Shown: one piece after another, positions 1 through 32,222 of the stretch
Numbering within the stretch: the stretch's first letter is position 1
Layout of the letters: every line of letters begins with the position of its first letter
Source of the DNA: Pseudovirgaria hyperparasitica
Lineage: Eukaryota
Length of the DNA stretch: 64,000 nucleotides
NCBI GenBank assembly: GCA_010093815.1
Contig: ML996577.1
Direction: 5' to 3' (one strand)
The notes under the pieces: generated by a model
Told to the model about the DNA's origin: nothing
The model's database searches: none
The model's input: the letters and a program-made list of their open reading frames with translations, nothing else
Translations under genes and position numbers: made by a program

Positions 1-343
1 GCGAAGCTTTGCTCACGAGCTAGTGGCAAAAGTACGGTTGCAGGGCGTGAAGGAGTGATCCTGATAGAGAGAGCCCAGCTAGCGAGATATATTAACGAGG
101 TGAAGAGGATTAGAATGGGATGGGACAGGGTGGCTGAAATAAAATCGAGATGAAGGGTTTGTACAGGACCGCGAAAGTAGGTGTACAAGGAAAGCGCGAC
201 GAGCCGGCTGGGGCTACACGTGACCCTGAAACAGTGGATACCTCCATCCCTCTCTAGGTCGTCACCACCACCTCTGAAGTGTCAAAGCCATCGTTGAAGC
301 CATTGACCTTTCCACGGTGTCTCTCCGATCGTATACAGCTACC

Positions 344-17286: not shown

Positions 17287-19395
<2,109 letters not shown>

Positions 19396-24489: not shown

Positions 24490-26945
24490 ATGAAAAAGCA
24501 TTTGTTCCTCTTAGCGTTGTCCTTTCAGTTGCGACTCAGCACACAGTATCAAACCAAAGAAGAATATGACCAAGACACCGCCGGGCTCAAGAAGATTGGC
24601 ATGTGTCGCAACTGGCACAAGGCCAATAAGCATACATTCGTTGAGGAGTGCCAGCCTACATGTGGCGATGCGAAAGAGCACTCCGTCTTATGCTTTGACA
24701 TCTCAAGTGACGGTAGCACTAAGGATTGGCACACAAGCTATGACGGCGAGAAGTACACACTCGGGCACTGTAAATGCGATGTAGCGATCGCCGAAAAGAT
24801 TGTCGGACAATACGTATTGTGGTTGCCCGTGGTGGCCGAAATCGGCTGCTTCATCTTTCTCAAAACTCTTTCATGGATAGGAGAACTGGTTGTAAATGCC
24901 GCAATTGATGCGATTCCGGGTGGCGCTGCGGTCAACGGAGCATTGAAGATGGTCATACAGGCTGCTAAGACGTTCGCTTCCAACGGATTGCCAGCCGATC
25001 CATTCAAGGCGTGGATTCTGGATACGTGCGACGTAGATCCGAACGAAAAATGGGTCAAAGATATTGGAGGTATCTTCGACGCGCTGTCAGGAAGTGTTGT
25101 CCCTGGCATTGAGGGTGTCCCATGCAAAAAATGCCCTGGGGGTAAGAACGACAATCACGACATCGACAAAGACAAAGACAAAGACAGGGGTAAACCGACT
25201 GGAGGCCCTAAAGATCCTAAGCCGACACATAATGACCATGGCCAAACCTCGAGGAAGGATGAACAGCACAAACCGACACCTACGTCAGACGAACATAAGA
25301 GCGTCGCCCAGACATCGAAGGGTTCTCCCCAAAGTACTGCGAGATCCAGTAATCCCCCGAAGTCTTCGGCTGTAAGCACCGCTCAGACACCGAAGAGTTC
25401 TCTCCAAAGTACTGCGAGATCTAGTGATCCCCCGAAGTCTTCGGCTGCAAGCGATAAAATACCCTCAGATCAAGCTCGCACCAAGACCGACACCCCAGCA
25501 AGCATGACTGCTACACCAACTTCTGCTTCTGCTTGTGCACTGGGAAAGCGTGATGGGCAGAATGTCCGAGACCAGAATGTTCGTTATTTTGAAGATGGTC
25601 GTAACACGTTCTTCGACGGCTGCACACTTCATGTGACAACCACTACAAAGAAGGATTGGGGCGCCCTAACGACACCTGCGGTGACCTGTTCTGCCAGGTG
25701 GAGCCAGGCATGCTACCATTACAGATCTGTGATGAGTGTGCAAGGAGCCCTTGGTAAGACTGATTACGTGCGGTGGACTTGTGGTGCGACGGCTAGCAGC
25801 TTTGACGGAAGAGCTACTCGGTTGTATTCGACCAGCTCACTAGTAGTGAAAAAGAACGAAAATGGCGGCGTGCCCTTCTTCTCGGTCCCTGATAAACTAA
25901 ACCAGCACCACTTCGGCTGGATTGATCGCTGGGTCGAGGCTGGGTATACCACCACCAATTACGTCGGCGGCTGCGATCGCGACGAGTGGCCACCAAGAAA
26001 TTTTTGGCCAGAGAGCAAGAAGGCAAAGGAAGGTCAGTTCATTAGACTTCTCCCAGCAGGTGAAAATAGAGGTGCAGGATCAATGTGGAACGGATTTTGT
26101 AAGATGAATAGTGATTGGAAACATTGGCTTCGGAAAGATCATTTGTCGAACGAAAAGGATAACGACCGAATACGTACGACTAATTCAATGGTTGTCGAAA
26201 ATATCAAAGATGGCAGAACCAGTAAGTACTTAACACTGAATCCGCGCCGCTGCAAGGTCTAACAATCAGATCAGCAATCACTACATCGGTTGGCGTTATC
26301 GTTCCTCAACCTGTCTTTGAGATAAAACACTGGGACGGTCTCCCAGATGGCGACGGCCTCGAAAAGAATAAATGCGTACCATCTGTACTCCTCGATGACT
26401 ACGGATTTGTACTCTTAACGAATGACCCCTGGTATGACCGTCCAGAAAATGCGCATCATAAAGCTACAGTCGGCATATATGCACGACCGCCTCCTGAAAT
26501 GTTGATGGCAGGACTACAGCCGCTGAGGGATAGGATAGGAGAGAAAGAATATTGCCAAGTCAAATACGCGCAATTGCGAGACCCAACGAAACCTCAGAAG
26601 AACTGGCCAAAGGCATGCTATTATTTTGGCATTGGTCCTCCACGTCCACAAGTCAGACGAGTACACGCACGTGACATACTGCCATGGCGAAATAGTACCG
26701 ATGACATGCAAAATTTTGATGACATCTATTCCTCCGACGAAGATGAATGGGAAGATCCAGATCAATTTGAAGAGCTAGATGCAGGAGCTTGGGACTCCTA
26801 CGCGGAAGAAGAGTATCCTTATGCAAGTTCACCCGCAAGCGCACCAGCAGAAGCGACAGTTGCACCTCAGTCTTCGACTGAACTGGAGACCAAAGTCATG
26901 GCGCGGAGCCCAATCAGTCCTGGGATGCCCCAGACAACCAGCTAG
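24490..26945 (+). CDS. Secreted multidomain protein, 800 aa, with a NucA/NucB-like (betabetaalpha-Me) nuclease domain; join(24490..26221,26275..26945)
   Basis: Signal-like N-terminus, Cys-rich/hydrophobic domain, S/T/P linker, LGKR site, then RWSQACYH, DRDEWP and ENRGAGS motifs. Intron GTAAGT..CTAAC..CAG joins the 590-aa and 148-aa ORFs in frame via DGLEKNKCVP..GFVLLTNDPWY. Confidence 0.8.
25306..25452 (+). repeat. 75-bp (25-aa) in-frame tandem duplication in the linker of the secreted nuclease-like protein
   Basis: AQTSKGSPQSTARSSNPPKSSAVST / AQTPKSSLQSTARSSDPPKSSAASD; units start at 25306 and 25381. Confidence 0.9.
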
Positions 26946-27473
26946 CCATGCTTGGATAAGTTCCTCTCCTCCCATGTAACATTCGTGTTGTATTTACTAT
27001 AGTACTACTATCATATATCAATGAAACCCAATAGCACAATCGAAGGGGATACCATTGTCAAATTGTCTTTCATACTGACGCTGAATTAGACGATGAAAGA
27101 GTAAAGCCCTTTAGAACACTTCATTGCCACTAAATATAGAAAGAAAATGAATGGACCTAACTATGAGTGAAGACCCATGCCATCCCCTGAGGCGAACTTG
27201 CGCGGCGTGTTGTAAGTGATGTTCGCCTTGTGATGATACAAAATTAGTAGTGGGGCTGCGGCGCAGCGCGCTACTAACGTGATCGCCTTGAATGATATTG
27301 TTTCAAGTCGGCGCTTCAGCAAGGCAACACTTTGCTACGCCGCGGGTATTTTAAAAGAAGTAGAGCGACGTGTTATATACCAAACATTGAACGTATATAT
27401 TGAAATCCCCCTTCCAACCCCGGCTCGCTCACTTTCACTTACTCAGACTTCTCGCGAGCTTCACAAGTACATC

Positions 27474-28388
27474 ATGGAACCATCCAGTCAAGTTTATTCA
27501 CGCGCCAAAACAATCGCCGCCATAACATCGTACTATGAGTTTCTCGCCAATGTCTACCTTTTCCCAGAGTATATCAAGTACCCCCCACCCGGAGGCTGGC
27601 CTGGGATTGACCAGGACTCTCTGGGCAACCTTCACAAGACCGACGAAGTCATCGAGCTGCTTCGACACATCCCCTATATGCATGGTCGGTTGATGTACAA
27701 TACAGACTGCGTGCGCTACGACACCAAGTGGCAGCAGGACGATATCAAACGAGGCAATCTGTTCCCCGTTACACCAGACTTTCCTCTGCCAGCACATGTT
27801 GTCAGCATCATACAGGGGAACATTGGCGATTCGTACTACGTCCTATTGGACACCGAGAAAGGTGTCATCATCTGGGGTGTTCATGGCTGCCACAACCTAT
27901 CAGCTGGTCTTGACGCGCCAGTATTCAGATACGAGGATGTCACAGCTGCCGAAGAGGATCAATGGAAGCGAGAAACAATCTCCTCGCGATGTGCCTTCGA
28001 CGTCGAAGTATTTTTCGATATGCTCAAGGACAAGTTCCGCTCCTGCGAGTGGCTGCCGTTCCCGCCTTATGAAGAGGGATATCTGGAGTATGAGACTGAC
28101 GATCATAGATTTGGAGATGAGCTGAAGGAAATTTTCATAGCGGCGGGTTGGCCGGGTGATGAGAACGGCCAGGGGTGGGATAGAGATCAGGCGATGGGAG
28201 AGATCGCAGATAGACATGGAGGTGACTGGGAGAGGTTTTCTGAAGATGAGAGGGACTGGGCGGATAGTGATGACGACGACGATACCGATGACCACGAGGA
28301 GAAGGAAGAGAAGGAAGAGAAGGAAGAAAAGGAGGAGAAGGAGGAGAAGGAGGAGAAGGAGGAGAAGGAGGATGACAGAACGGCCTGA
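27474..28388 (+). CDS. Hypothetical cytosolic acidic protein (fungal YYEFL..YPPPGGWP..VIELLRHIPY family), 304 aa
   Basis: Single-exon ORF with an ATG in good context at 27474, no signal peptide, and a D/E-rich tail. Confidence 0.8.
   Translation: MEPSSQVYSRAKTIAAITSYYEFLANVYLFPEYIKYPPPGGWPGIDQDSLGNLHKTDEVIELLRHIPYMHGRLMYNTDCVRYDTKWQQDDIKRGNLFPVTPDFPLPAHVVSIIQGNIGDSYYVLLDTEKGVIIWGVHGCHNLSAGLDAPVFRYEDVTAAEEDQWKRETISSRCAFDVEVFFDMLKDKFRSCEWLPFPPYEEGYLEYETDDHRFGDELKEIFIAAGWPGDENGQGWDRDQAMGEIADRHGGDWERFSEDERDWADSDDDDDTDDHEEKEEKEEKEEKEEKEEKEEKEEKEDDRTA
28296..28370 (+). repeat. Coding 9-bp repeat (GARGARAAG)x8 encoding (EEK)8
   Basis: Read directly from the sequence. Confidence 0.95.
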
Positions 28389-28875: not shown

Positions 28876-30780
28876 TCAAGCATTACCCGCTGCCTTCAAT
28901 CGCGCAGCCTTGAATCTACTGACCGGCTTCAATGTGCCATCTTCCTTTTCTTCCACTAAGGTGCTTAAGTCGTCTTCCTCGCCGTCTGCTGGGAGAAAAC
29001 CACCCTGCCGCTGAATCATGTGGTTTCGCATCTTGTGAAACTCTGCCTCCGCTTCGCGACGTATGAGTTCAGGGTCGAGCTCATCCGGGCTAGTGATGCT
29101 AGGATTTATTGCGTCGCGCTCGATCACGGCTGCGGAAAGAATTTGTCCCTTGGGACCAGTGGGAACAGAACGCTGGCGAATTTGTTCAGATGCTTGGAAG
29201 GAGCGCCCAACTTTGATATCCTGAGATATGTCGGATCTAGGTACAGAGGGCTCTAGTTTGGCGCTGCCGCGTTCCGACTTGAAACGGGACACTCTCTTGG
29301 TTTTCGGAGGTTCGACGGTAGATACTGCTCGAGGCGCTTGACGTTCGGTAATGGCTTCGCTGAAGGTTGCTGGTATATGCTTCTTCGGTGACTGCGAGGT
29401 GATTGTAGGTGTCGGTGTGTTGTCGGTTTTCAAAGAGATATCAAGTTCTTGCGCAAATCTGACACCTTTCTTCCTAGCATCTGTTCTTGTTTCACCCATG
29501 GATGGAACGCTTGTCAGATTTTCCTTGTTTCGCACTACTAGCCTGTGTGCGGACTGATTAAGTTCCTTGTCGACCTCCAGCTCTTTCATCTCATCGTCTT
29601 GTTTAGGTCCAACGTTTTCTATCATGCGCGCATTAAGCTTTCGCTCAAGCTCTAGCATCTTTTCTCGATAGGCGTCGGTAATTACTGGTTGCGTTGTCAT
29701 CCCAAATTCATTTTCATCTTCATCCTCGGTGTCTGGCTCAAACTCATCATCATAGGATTCATCATAGGATTCATCATCGTCTTCGTCCTCGTCCTCGTAG
29801 TCGCTGCCGTTTTCTTCGAGATTAATCTCCGCCACGACGGAACCGACTTCATGAACGTACTCTAGCATCTCGCGTCTGATGGTGGCTTCATCGCGCGTGT
29901 CTGCCTGGAGCTGAATAGGCATAGAGCCGATAGGCAGGTCTTCGTCATCGAGTTCTATGATGCGGGAGGGTCCACTTGGATCGGTCATGAAAAAGCCTCG
30001 AGCAATATCAGGGTTCAATCGTCTGTTCGAAGAAGCTGATGTGGCTTCCTTAGAAGATTCAATGGTAGCAGCTTTGGTGTCCTCCGAAAATGACACGGAT
30101 TTCTTGACCGGAGCAGGTGGGTCTCCACCACTCTGATCGGCTATGGTGGGATCAGTCTCTTCAGGCTCCGTGTCTGTTGACGTCGGCGGTGGCGGACTGC
30201 TCGTATTAGTCGATTCGGTATTGGGAGCATCGTTGGCGCCTAGATTAATCCCGGCTTTATCTAAAGCTTCGACTATTTTGGAGGCCGCTTGGCTCGGAGC
30301 AGCAACGCTGCCTGAAATTACATTGCCATCATCGTCAAGCTCCTCAACAATGTCCATGATTGGTAGTCCATGCTCGTCCTGGAACTCTTGTTTGACTCCG
30401 AGAAGGCTCTGCAGTTTTTCTTCGGAGGCGCTGAGCTGTTTCGACACACTATCAACATTCTTGCGCACGTAGTCTTGCCTTCTAGTAATGATATCAGCGA
30501 TCTGACTGGAAGTCCTCTGCAGACCTTTAGCGACACCACTAAGTTCCTTGATTTCGGTTTGGTCAACTAGATCACCTCCGAACGTAACAAACACTTGCAG
30601 GATTTGCTCCTGCGAAGGATTCTTGAGAGCCTGAAACTCTTCCTTGAGAGCTTCATACTCAAAATCCCATGCCTGCCAGTGGTTCAAGGCGGTTCGGAGC
30701 TTCAAAATGCCATCTTCTAGCCGTGACCGCAGCTTCTCTAGATTCGCTAGGTCATCGCCTGGATCGATTTGCGCACTCAT
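28876..30780 (-). CDS. BUD27: Unconventional prefoldin Bud27/URI-like protein (prefoldin N-terminus, DUF3835-like C-terminus)
   Basis: LEDGILKLRTALNHWQAWDFEYEALKEE..RRQDYVRKN, an acidic middle, repeated VSRFK motifs and terminal SRFKAAR. First ATG at 30780. Confidence 0.8.
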   Translation of the reverse strand: MSAQIDPGDDLANLEKLRSRLEDGILKLRTALNHWQAWDFEYEALKEEFQALKNPSQEQILQVFVTFGGDLVDQTEIKELSGVAKGLQRTSSQIADIITRRQDYVRKNVDSVSKQLSASEEKLQSLLGVKQEFQDEHGLPIMDIVEELDDDGNVISGSVAAPSQAASKIVEALDKAGINLGANDAPNTESTNTSSPPPPTSTDTEPEETDPTIADQSGGDPPAPVKKSVSFSEDTKAATIESSKEATSASSNRRLNPDIARGFFMTDPSGPSRIIELDDEDLPIGSMPIQLQADTRDEATIRREMLEYVHEVGSVVAEINLEENGSDYEDEDEDDDESYDESYDDEFEPDTEDEDENEFGMTTQPVITDAYREKMLELERKLNARMIENVGPKQDDEMKELEVDKELNQSAHRLVVRNKENLTSVPSMGETRTDARKKGVRFAQELDISLKTDNTPTPTITSQSPKKHIPATFSEAITERQAPRAVSTVEPPKTKRVSRFKSERGSAKLEPSVPRSDISQDIKVGRSFQASEQIRQRSVPTGPKGQILSAAVIERDAINPSITSPDELDPELIRREAEAEFHKMRNHMIQRQGGFLPADGEEDDLSTLVEEKEDGTLKPVSRFKAARLKAAGNA

Positions 30781-31008
30781 TTCTCGGAACTGTTGTGCGA
30801 AGCATCCGACCAGACGAAGGTTGAAGAGTGGCGCAGAAAACTTGCGGACGCGACGGGGCACAACTGTAATGACAAAGCGCGTCAGGTCGCGGTCCAAGCT
30901 CCGAGTCTGGATCCATTAATTACTAGGTAGGTAATAGCTACCTCACTGCACACATACACATACCTAGGTAGCTGCCACTTTATCTGCTTTACAACGCACT
31001 TTGGCGCC

Positions 31009-32222
31009 ATGTCGAGGGCAGTGCAGCGCCCTGGGGGAGCAGCGCCAAAGCGCACTGAGATAACAGATGACGGTGGTGAGTTTCATTCCTACTTCGACTC
31101 CCCCGAGCTTCGAAATGTACACAAAACTGACAAGACCTCAGACATTTGTCCTGTCTGCAAATCCTCACGGTACCTTAATCCTCAGATGAAGTTTTTGGTA
31201 AACCCAGAATGCTATCACAAGATGTGCGAGTCCTGCGTGGACCGTATCTTTTCCTCTGGACCCGCCCCGTGTCCTATAGCAGGGTGCAGACGGACACTGC
31301 GCAAGGCGAAGTTTCGAGCTCAGACGTTTGAAGACGTTTTTGTTGAAAGAGAAGTTGATATAAGACGAAGGGTCGCCAAAGTGTGAGTCTGACAACTCGA
31401 CCCCGAAGAGACTACGCCCGCTAATCATGCACAACCAGATTCAACCGCTGCGAAGAAGACTTTGAAACCCTGCTCGATTATAACGACTACCTAAATGATG
31501 TTGAAGATATCACTTACAACCTGATCAATGGGATAGATGTGGAGGCATCTGAGAAAAAGTTACAGGGCTATGCGGAGGCGAACAGGCAGCTTATCGATGA
31601 TAACGAAAACAGGGCTAGAAAGGCGGCAACAACATATGCAGCCCGCCAAGCTCAGGTGAAGGAGCAATCACGCCTCAGACGAGAGGCGAATATGCGCGAA
31701 GAAGAGCGTGAACGGCAGGAAAGGCTGGAGGGTCAACGAAATATCATCAACCAGCTGGCGTCGCGCGATGGTGATGCTGAGCAGATTGTACGGGAAGGCC
31801 AAATTGGCCTCAAGAGACGGCACAAAACGGCCATCCCAGATCGTCGAAAACCGTCCGCCTCGGCCACGAAAGCGGAAGATGGAAAACTACTCTACAGGGG
31901 CCTCAAGAAGAAGACAGAAGTCGAACCAGAAAGGCCATTTTCGCCCTACGCTGGACTTAGGATTGCGAATGAATATTCCGTGGTTCAAGACCATTATGAC
32001 GCCCCGTGGCTCAGTTTCGCTTGGCAAGACGAACGATACCTGGCTGGCGGCTTCAAGATTGGAGACTTTTACAGCAGAGTGTTCAGCGAAGCGTTTGCTG
32101 GGCTGAGTGTATTCGTCGATGAGGAAGTCGCTGGTCGTAATCTCACCGGGTCGTTTTCAGCTACAGAAGGTGCAGTAGCGGCAGCTGATCAGGATGTGAA
32201 CATGAGTGATGATATATTTTGA
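31009..32222 (+). CDS. TFB3: TFIIH/CAK assembly factor Tfb3/MAT1; join(31009..31075,31142..31382,31439..32222)
   Basis: RING CPVCKSSRYLNP..ECYHKMCESCVDRIF..CPIAGC, then EREVDIRRRV..FNR.EEDF.TLLDYNDYL. Confidence 0.95.

Follow-up and report, generated by a model that had tools for sequence, protein, structure and literature searches.

The closest described counterparts of the gene considered here, which occupies positions 24490-26945 on the plus strand of a 64,000-nucleotide stretch of contig ML996577.1 from the fungus Pseudovirgaria hyperparasitica (GenBank assembly GCA_010093815.1; the whole stretch is hereafter the window), are a bacterial nuclease and a yeast killer toxin. Bacillus NucB and NucA are sporulation-specific extracellular deoxyribonucleases (DNases; PF14040; PDB 5OMT, 6EJS, 9FJ7), and NucB is secreted and acts on extracellular DNA (eDNA) and biofilms (PMC5758888). 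Mutagenesis established that its His53, Asp93, Glu94 and Asn117 are required for activity. Specifically, Asp93 and Asn117 hold the metal and Glu94 stands in place of the usual His base, while the DRDE and DNRG motifs are conserved across the family (PMC5758888). In the zymocin of Kluyveromyces lactis, subunits alpha and beta are proteolysis products of one chitinase precursor, and the gamma subunit is disulfide-linked to a Cys at the chitinase C-terminus (10.1101/2024.10.25.620242). The data presented here suggest that the window gene may join the two themes, encoding a zymocin-like killer toxin with a cis-fused DNase payload that stems from an unannotated family of Pezizomycotina; the probability of this reading is put at about 0.5.

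Several further systems frame the comparison. The C-II chitinases of Pezizomycotina are zymocin's nuclear relatives: many are flanked by a gamma-toxin gene of its own and some also by one for immunity, others have neither, and the survey reports no such clusters in Leotiomycetes (10.1101/2024.10.25.620242; Heneghan, Salzberg, Wolfe). 'Cryptic' yeast plasmids, in turn, often retain the chitinase gene without a recognisable gamma-toxin (PMC13348850). For ORF2p of the Debaryomyces hansenii linear plasmid pDH5A, an in silico analysis described chitin-binding and GH18 domains, one transmembrane region, two KEX2 motifs and a NucA/NucB DNase fragment (Polomska et al. 2021, PMC8472843); according to the same authors, no linear-plasmid protein has so far been shown to have DNase activity. 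Bacterial polymorphic toxins and colicins place a conserved nuclease tip on varied delivery heads (Zhang, Iyer, Aravind 2011, PMC3113570; Zhang et al. 2012, PMC3482391), and SUKH proteins are classic immunity proteins of bacterial nuclease toxins, those with the HNH fold included (PMC3113570, PMC3482391). The 'Tox-NucA' of these two studies is the Anabaena/Serratia type and not Bacillus NucA/NucB.

The window DNA is eukaryotic and of fungal type. The gene comprises two exons separated by one 53-nt intron, and its spliced product is 800 amino acids (aa) long. The open reading frame (ORF) of exon 1 runs from the ATG at 24490 to 26262 (plus strand) and opens with MKKHLFLLALSF; a gene that spans out to 26945 requires an intron, and a canonical one is found at 26222-26274. 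Two comparisons support it. The chitinase homologue P0021 aligns on either side, its residues 1320-1447 to 25675-26121 in one frame and its residues 1481-1565 to 26283-26528 in another, and the exon-2 product is 46% identical to P0019 (BLASTP, E 1e-15). From its N-terminus, the protein consists of a signal-like segment, a Cys-rich module, a K/D-rich and then S/T/P-rich linker, a KR site, the NucB-like domain, a C-terminal subdomain, the VRR site and an acidic tail. All of these parts, together with the hydrophobic stretch and the motifs RWSQACYH, DRDEWP and ENRGAGS, lie where the initial annotation had placed them. No part of the protein matches a family in Pfam (even at E 10), NCBIfam or PADLOC. 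The features are as follows.

24490-24546, plus strand: start codon and signal-peptide-like N-terminus (aa 1-19, MKKHLFLLALSFQLRLSTQ), read by eye from the translation.
24547-25140, plus strand: N-terminal Cys-rich module (aa 20-217, 10 Cys), a beta-subunit-like, putative delivery module kept in 10 homologues of alignment A1.
24781-24909, plus strand: hydrophobic helices within the N-module (aa 98-140), with a Kyte-Doolittle 19-residue mean of up to 1.88 at aa 109.
25141-25545, plus strand: K/D-rich, then S/T/P-rich low-complexity linker (aa 218-352), with 54 S+T+P in 135 aa.
25534-25551, plus strand: junction CALGKR, with Cys349 (invariant in A1) followed by the Kex2-type KR353-354 (25546-25551).
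25552-26124, plus strand: predicted divergent NucB-type beta-beta-alpha-metal nuclease domain (aa 355-545), based on predicted fold, motifs and conservation.
25717-25719, plus strand: His410 (in RWSQACYH), candidate equivalent of NucB His53, kept in 69 of the 76 relatives in which the column is filled.
25975-25992, plus strand: DRDEWP, with Arg497, Asp498 (putative metal ligand) and Glu499 (putative general base) aligned to NucB Arg92, Asp93 and Glu94.
26062-26082, plus strand: ENRGAGS, aligned to NucB DNRGAGS, with Asn526 (putative metal ligand) at the start of a helix and equivalent to NucB Asn117.
26222-26274, plus strand: intron of 53 nt, phase 1, GTAAGT..CTAAC..CAG, joining exon 1 in frame to 26275-26945.
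26283-26435, plus strand: conserved C-terminal subdomain (aa 581-631; ..VFEIKHWDGLP..GLEKNKCVPS..GFVLLTNDPWY), kept in 22 aligned relatives and present in the A4 consensus.
26655-26660, plus strand: second dibasic site RR705-706 (VRR, aa 704-706), lying in a narrow column window that contains [KR]R in 16 of the 22 relatives aligned.
26661-26945, plus strand: acidic C-terminal tail (aa 707-800; 21 D+E against 3 K+R) and stop codon.

Structure prediction makes it very likely that the C-terminal domain has a NucB-type fold. The AlphaFold2 (AF2) model (m9d8117c4c76e), which covers aa 375-577 and was computed from a 104-sequence alignment, has a mean predicted local distance difference test (pLDDT) value of 70.7 with a confident core, and contains a beta-beta-alpha unit composed of strand 121-126 (CDRDEW), strand 143-148 and helix 149-157 (..ENRGAGS..) in model numbering. 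In a VIA-align comparison with 48,161 representative chains, NucB (6ejs) is the sole chain with a Z of at least 5 (Z 6.2, root-mean-square deviation (rmsd) 2.8, 94 of 109 residues), and the next reaches Z 2.5. A second look gives Z 7.0 for both 9fj7 and 5omt, so that the three NucB chains span Z 6.2-7.0 over 94-96 of 109-110 residues at rmsd 2.7-2.9; three of the five other rows belong to beta-beta-alpha-metal nucleases, namely the Serratia endonuclease, EXOG and NucA of S. agalactiae. Best scores near Z 7 are common, but the value carries weight here because the match spans nearly the whole of NucB, stands far above the rest and coincides with motif identities. Foldseek, which the initial annotation had suggested along with AlphaFold, also returns NucB in its top three rows, but at E-values (0.48-2.3) that are not significant.

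The sequence comparisons point in the same direction. With phmmer, aa 355-577 match only NucB entries among all PDB chains (5omt at E 0.18, 6ejs at E 0.22), and the alignment pairs GCDRDEWP...ENRGAGS with NucB GFDRDEWP...DNRGAGS. The profile of the whole-protein alignment A1 reaches NucB at E 0.045, with an unrelated low-complexity match ranking higher, and a domain-only profile built from 25 sequences reaches it at E 0.021, again as the sole match. As the only PDB match of the domain query and of the domain-only profile, and the only chain with Z of at least 5, NucB exceeds what chance would give, and the NucB-type nuclease domain that had been proposed thereby gains support from both the beta-beta-alpha-metal fold of the model and the conserved Asp, Glu and Asn. 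Among 104 relatives, PF14040 (DNase_NucA_NucB) is the commonest Pfam match, with nine proteins at E of 1 or less and a best value of 9e-4. All of these are sub-threshold, the best scoring 20.2 bits against a gathering cutoff of 23.8, and apart from the families of enzyme heads no other Pfam family matches more than two of the 104. Such sub-threshold scores indicate a sister family rather than a Pfam-defined member. As modelled, the domain is thus probably a divergent sister of PF14040 and catalytically active.

The putative catalytic residues are kept in nearly all relatives. D496-R497-D498-E499 aligns to the DRDE of NucB and E525-N526-R527-G528 to its DNRG, with the Asp and Glu on a strand and the Asn at the start of a helix, as in NucB. 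The columns of Asp498 (kept in 103 of 104 relatives), Glu499 (102 of 104) and Asn526 (101 of 103) are among the most conserved of the fungal family, and Arg497, the equivalent of the phosphate-contacting NucB Arg92, is retained in 75 of 104. The domain thereby resembles the Glu-base variant of the His-Me finger that NucB represents (PMC5758888). Of the three Bacillus motifs that the initial annotation had invoked, DRDEWP and DNRGAGS are borne out by the PDB alignments and by the DRDE and DNRG motifs named for NucB (PMC5758888), while RYPETGAH was not encountered in the alignments. For the remaining catalytic position, the VIA-align ranges (model 17..167 to chain 34..132) put model residue 36 at chain position 53 if the stretch is ungapped; His410 may therefore be the equivalent of NucB His53, a candidate assignment for which His473 (94 of 98) is the alternative.

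Nearly all of the NucB chain can be superposed on the predicted fold of the window domain, and the window protein, like NucB, is predicted to be secreted. In contrast, the domain is only about 21% identical to NucB, falls below the Pfam threshold and is eukaryotic; it measures about 190 aa against the 110 aa of NucB, contains some 60 inserted aa and has five to six Cys that are conserved. In addition, it forms one part of a precursor of 800 aa, which also comprises the delivery-type module, the processing sites, a further subdomain towards the C-terminus and the acidic tail.

The domain belongs to a sizeable fungal family. A word-indexed search returned 19 relatives that lack any Pfam domain and measure 317-1010 aa; their named sources are Colletotrichum, Leptodontidium, Oculimacula, Hypoxylon, Nemania, Cadophora, Cercophora and Plectosphaerella. 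A phmmer search of the domain against 1.84 billion representatives yielded 109 proteins at E of 1e-3 or less, 22 of them at 1e-10 or less, and the named sources of the family are all Pezizomycotina except for one mislabelled record. When 101 of the 109 were compared with Pfam, 92 showed no family, four GH18, two DUF7029 plus DUF7223, one a pectate-lyase-like domain, one a subtilase and one a sub-threshold PF14040 match; no paper on DUF7223 was found in the literature. Hidden Markov models (HMMs) built for this work detect the nuclease domain in 130 of 139 collected proteins, a set that was gathered with the query itself and does not give unbiased frequencies.

The longer members of the family reveal what the domain is attached to. 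Four LysM/CBM18/GH18 chitinases carry it at the C-terminus (P0021-P0024), and P0044 and P0116 are further carriers of the chitinase type. In P0023 from Hypoxylon, GH18 is followed by the N-module (query 26-255 to residues 1018-1253) and then by the nuclease-like domain (query 394-537 to 1299-1420). In P0056, the cassette of N-module and nuclease-like domain follows a Pect-lyase_RHGA_epim domain, the source name being 'Glucan 1,3-beta-glucosidase' (GH55-like), and P0131 from Apiospora kogelbergensis (1472 aa), a cluster mate of the protein with the subtilase match, combines GH71, N-module, NucB-like domain and a subtilase S8. The enzyme heads thus cut chitin, beta-1,3-glucan and alpha-1,3-glucan, all of them polymers of the fungal wall. 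Headless proteins of 640-810 aa with the same layout as the window protein occur in Colletotrichum, Leptodontidium, Oculimacula and Hypoxylon. The DGL..N.C.P..GF.LLT.DPWY segment, for which a resemblance to the C-termini of killer-toxin-like GH18 chitinases had been noted, does recur there, as do the nuclease-like domain and the N-module. The accompanying statement that the window holds no GH18 domain also stands: a tblastn search of the whole window with seven carriers gave matches limited to the N-module, the nuclease domain and exon 2, and no enzyme head.

Some carriers have peculiarities of their own. The protease fused to the cassette in Apiospora kogelbergensis may relate to processing; another assembly of this fungus splits the P0131 region into two adjacent models (P0131, P0110, P0132). 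P0088, a GH18 carrier with the source name 'killer toxin subunits alpha/beta [Quercus suber]', comes from an oak assembly and is suspected to be a fungal contaminant in a plant assembly. Its NucB-like domain is present twice, as identical copies in tandem, through either a genuine duplication or an artefact of assembly. A scan of viral contigs with the chitinase-type P0116 found nothing.

The N-module travels with the nuclease domain. In 50 of the 139 proteins, GH18, GH55-like and GH71 enzymes included, the HMM places it 100-200 aa upstream of the nuclease-like domain. Its hydrophobic stretch, which in the window protein reads YVLWLPVVAEIGCFIFLKTLSWIGELVVNAAIDAIPGGAAVNGAL, is conserved in character: across 33 N-modules the Kyte-Doolittle 19-residue maximum has a median of 1.75 and is at least 1.6 in 20. 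The module has no Pfam or NCBIfam match, and an Atlas structure search with it gave no lead (best score 0.78). The initial annotation had suggested a survey of the same module on other toxic domains, which turned up one case: P0011 (524 aa) has the same N-module (residues 103-228) and a Cys-KKR junction, followed by a different C-terminal domain, but this tip has no Pfam or PDB match. This single example hints that the tip of the cassette is exchangeable. A deaminase-like assignment of the P0011 tip (H-S-E ... P-C...C) was dropped, as it has no Pfam or PDB support and its Cys spacing is not canonical.

The sites at which the precursor would be processed are conserved as well. Across its 800 aa, the protein has [KR]R only at KR353-354 and RR705-706, and both fall at family-conserved positions. 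Among 60 relatives whose sequence extends 45 aa or more upstream of the domain, [KR]R is found at the junction in 27, with a Cys no more than 12 aa before it in 19 of these 27; several other relatives have C-x(2-6)-R-A with a single Arg, and the junction also occurs behind another head (P0025, ..ACKLPKR..). At the second site, the dibasic pair of five of the six relatives that miss the column window sits, by eye, just outside it. The protein has 20 Cys in total, namely 10 in the N-module, Cys349, six in the nuclease domain and three beyond. Since the N-module holds an even set of 10, Cys349 would need a partner beyond the KR if all Cys are paired.

The acidic tail, which could speculatively act as a pro-peptide or inhibitor, contains the sole N-x-S/T sequon of the protein (N717), and the tails of close relatives are also net acidic. 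In a second subfamily (P0040, P0063, P0064, P0069, P0070, P0078 and P0089), the dibasic site is followed by ..LEDG..N.S/T-R.L-T/S-DEE..C.D..CS.E.. with two Cys, a place that a plain acidic tail takes in the closer kin of the window protein.

These features are compatible with a model in which the signal peptide would direct the precursor into the secretory pathway, where a Kex2-type cut at KR353-354 would part the Cys-rich hydrophobic N-module from the nuclease and a cut at RR705-706 would take off the acidic tail, both placed by the conservation of the sites. The N-module would correspond to the beta-subunit region of killer-toxin-like chitinases, and Cys349 could tether it to the nuclease chain in the manner of zymocin beta and gamma. 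The outcome would be a two-chain toxin whose hydrophobic module, by analogy, aids the nuclease across the membrane of a competitor. There, the NucB-type domain would cut nucleic acid, most likely DNA, with Asp498 and Asn526 holding the metal and Glu499 acting as base. In relatives, the GH18, GH55-like beta-1,3-glucanase and GH71 alpha-1,3-glucanase heads would bring the cassette to fungal walls; the window copy lacks a head and starts with a signal-like peptide of its own. Three homologues of full length, P0006, P0008 and P0010, likewise begin with hydrophobic signal-like segments. By analogy, the protein is probably a nuclease weapon against competing fungi.

The likeness to the zymocin alpha/beta precursor lies in a predicted secreted precursor with Kex-type sites, a hydrophobic region and a Cys near the end of the carrier. 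The beta subunit of zymocin is hydrophobic. The N-module is likened to it by description. The relatives of the window protein add to the resemblance, being LysM/CBM18/GH18 chitinases of which one is named for killer toxin subunits alpha and beta. Unlike zymocin, whose payload is a separate small anticodon ribonuclease (RNase), the window protein has its payload fused in cis, and this payload is a predicted nuclease of the NucB type, probably acting on DNA. In contrast to C-II chitinases, the window copy is devoid of GH18, LysM and chitin-binding domains, and whereas gamma-toxin clusters were not found in Leotiomycetes, the window family includes members from this class. With pDH5A ORF2p, again compared by description only, it shares a hydrophobic part, a KEX2/KR site and a NucB-like domain in the same order; the plasmid protein is encoded on a cytoplasmic plasmid of a budding yeast and has a chitinase head, whereas the window gene is nuclear, intron-bearing and headless. 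As far as the search went, the cassette is absent from Pfam and undescribed in filamentous fungi, the comparable yeast plasmid protein having been described in 2021. No report of a NucB-like domain in filamentous-fungal chitinases was found in the literature, although Tables S1-S4 of 10.1101/2024.10.25.620242, which lay outside the search, might list some.

Several points weigh against the killer-toxin reading. NucB itself degrades eDNA and is no toxin, and a DNase toxin would also need to reach the nucleus of the target cell. The window protein lacks a cell-wall-binding head, with no GH18, LysM or chitin-binding domain detected by Pfam in any of its parts or by tblastn, and no gamma-toxin, LysM or GH18 gene was found nearby (Pfam on six ORFs within 14-36 kb; tblastn with seven carriers over the whole window). 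The similarity to the NucB sequence is marginal: the profile comparison with the NucA/NucB DNases that had been suggested fails for the window protein, which misses the PF14040 gathering threshold and gives no match even at E 10. The structural evidence shares some of this weakness through the non-significant Foldseek values and the commonness of a best Z near 7, and the AF2 model stops before the exon-2 part. Long proteins with the N-module alone were not found at E 1e-3, a result of little weight given that the module is present in P0023, P0044 and P0056.

What, then, could the protein be if not a toxin? The main rival is an extracellular DNase that works outside cells and breaks down DNA of the environment, of biofilms or of host extracellular traps, as an aid to nutrition or colonisation, with the N-module as an anchor or stabiliser. 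It would share the NucB-type fold and the same catalytic residues, it has the example of NucB as a secreted eDNA/biofilm nuclease (PMC5758888) and of secreted DNases that are virulence factors in a plant-pathogenic bacterium (PMC6960344), and it accords with a window copy that has no cell-wall hydrolase head. However, it leaves unexplained the conserved hydrophobic helix, the Cys and dibasic junction, the second processing site and the acidic tail, as well as the repeated fusion to enzymes acting on chitin, beta-1,3-glucan and alpha-1,3-glucan, features that fit a zymocin-type layout. The domain architecture thus favours a toxin over an eDNA-degrading effector, and the extracellular DNase is best regarded as a possibility to be taken seriously rather than as a probable answer.

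Two further explanations touch the domain and the gene themselves. The NucB-like domain might be no nuclease at all, serving instead as a binding or structural domain or as an enzyme for another substrate on a NucB-like scaffold. A shared fold is no proof of function, and the missing Pfam match, the marginal sequence E-values and the mean pLDDT of the model leave room for this idea, yet the three residues that are catalytic in NucB rank highest in conservation within the family (101-103 of 103-104), and an inactive scaffold would be unlikely to keep exactly these, which renders the idea improbable. Alternatively, the gene might be the functionless, decaying relic of a killer-toxin-like chitinase gene from which the GH18 head was lost, as the occurrence of the cassette behind GH18 and other heads in relatives could suggest. 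The 800-aa frame is intact, though, with a canonical intron, its own start codon and a signal-like peptide; headless homologues of similar length exist in four other genera, and the catalytic and Cys positions are all kept, so that decay appears very improbable.

If the killer-toxin reading holds, it bears on the killer-toxin-like (C-II) chitinases. Their numbers are expanded in mycoparasites and in fungi of the soil, and they have lately been linked to separate zymocin-like RNase genes, but many of them, like the 'cryptic' yeast plasmids, have no identifiable toxin gene; the cassette could represent another kind of payload beside the RNases. Fused to fungal-wall hydrolases of three kinds, and found headless as well, it would be a DNase payload built into its carrier, one that offers concrete residues and cleavage sites and extends the killer-toxin theme to Leotiomycetes. 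The small NucB family, in which the chemistry of the Glu base has yet to be understood, would also gain a eukaryotic branch, and the protein, if antifungal, would be a candidate for biocontrol.

The surroundings of the gene include one neighbour of potential relevance. It lies on the same strand, 529 bp past the stop codon, and is listed here with the neighbours identified by Pfam.

27474-28388, plus strand: downstream gene of 304 aa with an acidic E/K-repeat tail and no signal peptide seen; candidate SUKH/Smi1-Knr4-like protein.
18211-19395, plus strand: C-terminal part of a GH15 glucoamylase with a CBM20 starch-binding domain (Pfam).
28876-30897, minus strand: URI-type prefoldin (Prefoldin_3 and DUF3835; Pfam).
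31539-32222, plus strand: MAT1 (Pfam).

The Pfam scan covered six ORFs of at least 150 aa within 14-36 kb. Three were identified, all housekeeping or ordinary genes, and the other three, including ORF 27279-28388, gave no match; no known Imm-type gene and no chitinase, LysM or further toxin-cluster gene appeared among the six, and no search was aimed with gamma-toxin or Imm sequences. For the exact sequence of the downstream protein, the Atlas model has template-modelling (TM) scores of 0.54-0.68 to Ascomycota clusters, one of them named Knr4/Smi1-like, with all rows under the bar for naming. The match to bacterial SMI1_KNR4 and SUKH-4/5/6 clusters is weaker (TM 0.30-0.35 by query, 0.24-0.59 by row) and also under that bar. 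The protein has no support in Pfam, PDB, NCBIfam or PADLOC, where only chance matches to the acidic tail were seen, no relative in the metagenome scan and no paralogue in the window. Its single-sequence AF2 model is unusable (pLDDT 36.2), and a complex prediction of the nuclease domain with the downstream protein, computed with the alignment not used, scored 0.00 and weighs neither way.

The SUKH lead is attractive because SUKH proteins protect against bacterial nuclease toxins, but the Smi1/Knr4-like family is large in Ascomycota, so that the adjacency may be chance. As such, the downstream gene is a weak lead, an unconfirmed candidate for an immunity factor. The comparison with bacterial polymorphic toxins can nevertheless be drawn out. 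They join HNH/EndoVII (beta-beta-alpha-metal) DNase tips to varied delivery heads, P0011 bears another tip on the same N-module, and Imm-SUKH is listed for many of their HNH-fold toxins (PMC3113570, PMC3482391), to which the window neighbour offers only a weak SUKH-like structural lead. The window system differs in being eukaryotic with predicted secretory-pathway processing, and its neighbour shows no sequence-level SUKH signal. A bold extension would see in the locus a two-gene toxin-immunity module that follows this bacterial logic, with a secreted, hydrophobic and beta-like delivery module, in some proteins preceded by a chitinase, beta-1,3-glucanase or alpha-1,3-glucanase head, bearing an exchangeable tip (NucB-type here, another in P0011), a cytosolic SUKH/Smi1-Knr4-like protector 529 bp downstream, and the cassette as the missing toxin of gamma-less chitinases and 'cryptic' plasmids. 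Taken as a whole, this scheme is a long shot.

A last observation concerns the linker between N-module and junction, which varies in length and sequence among homologues. In the window (25300-25440, plus strand), it contains two imperfect repeats of about 23 aa, ..SPQSTARSSNPPKSSA.. and ..SLQSTARSSDPPKSSA.., with the pattern ..QSTARSS.PPKSSA...

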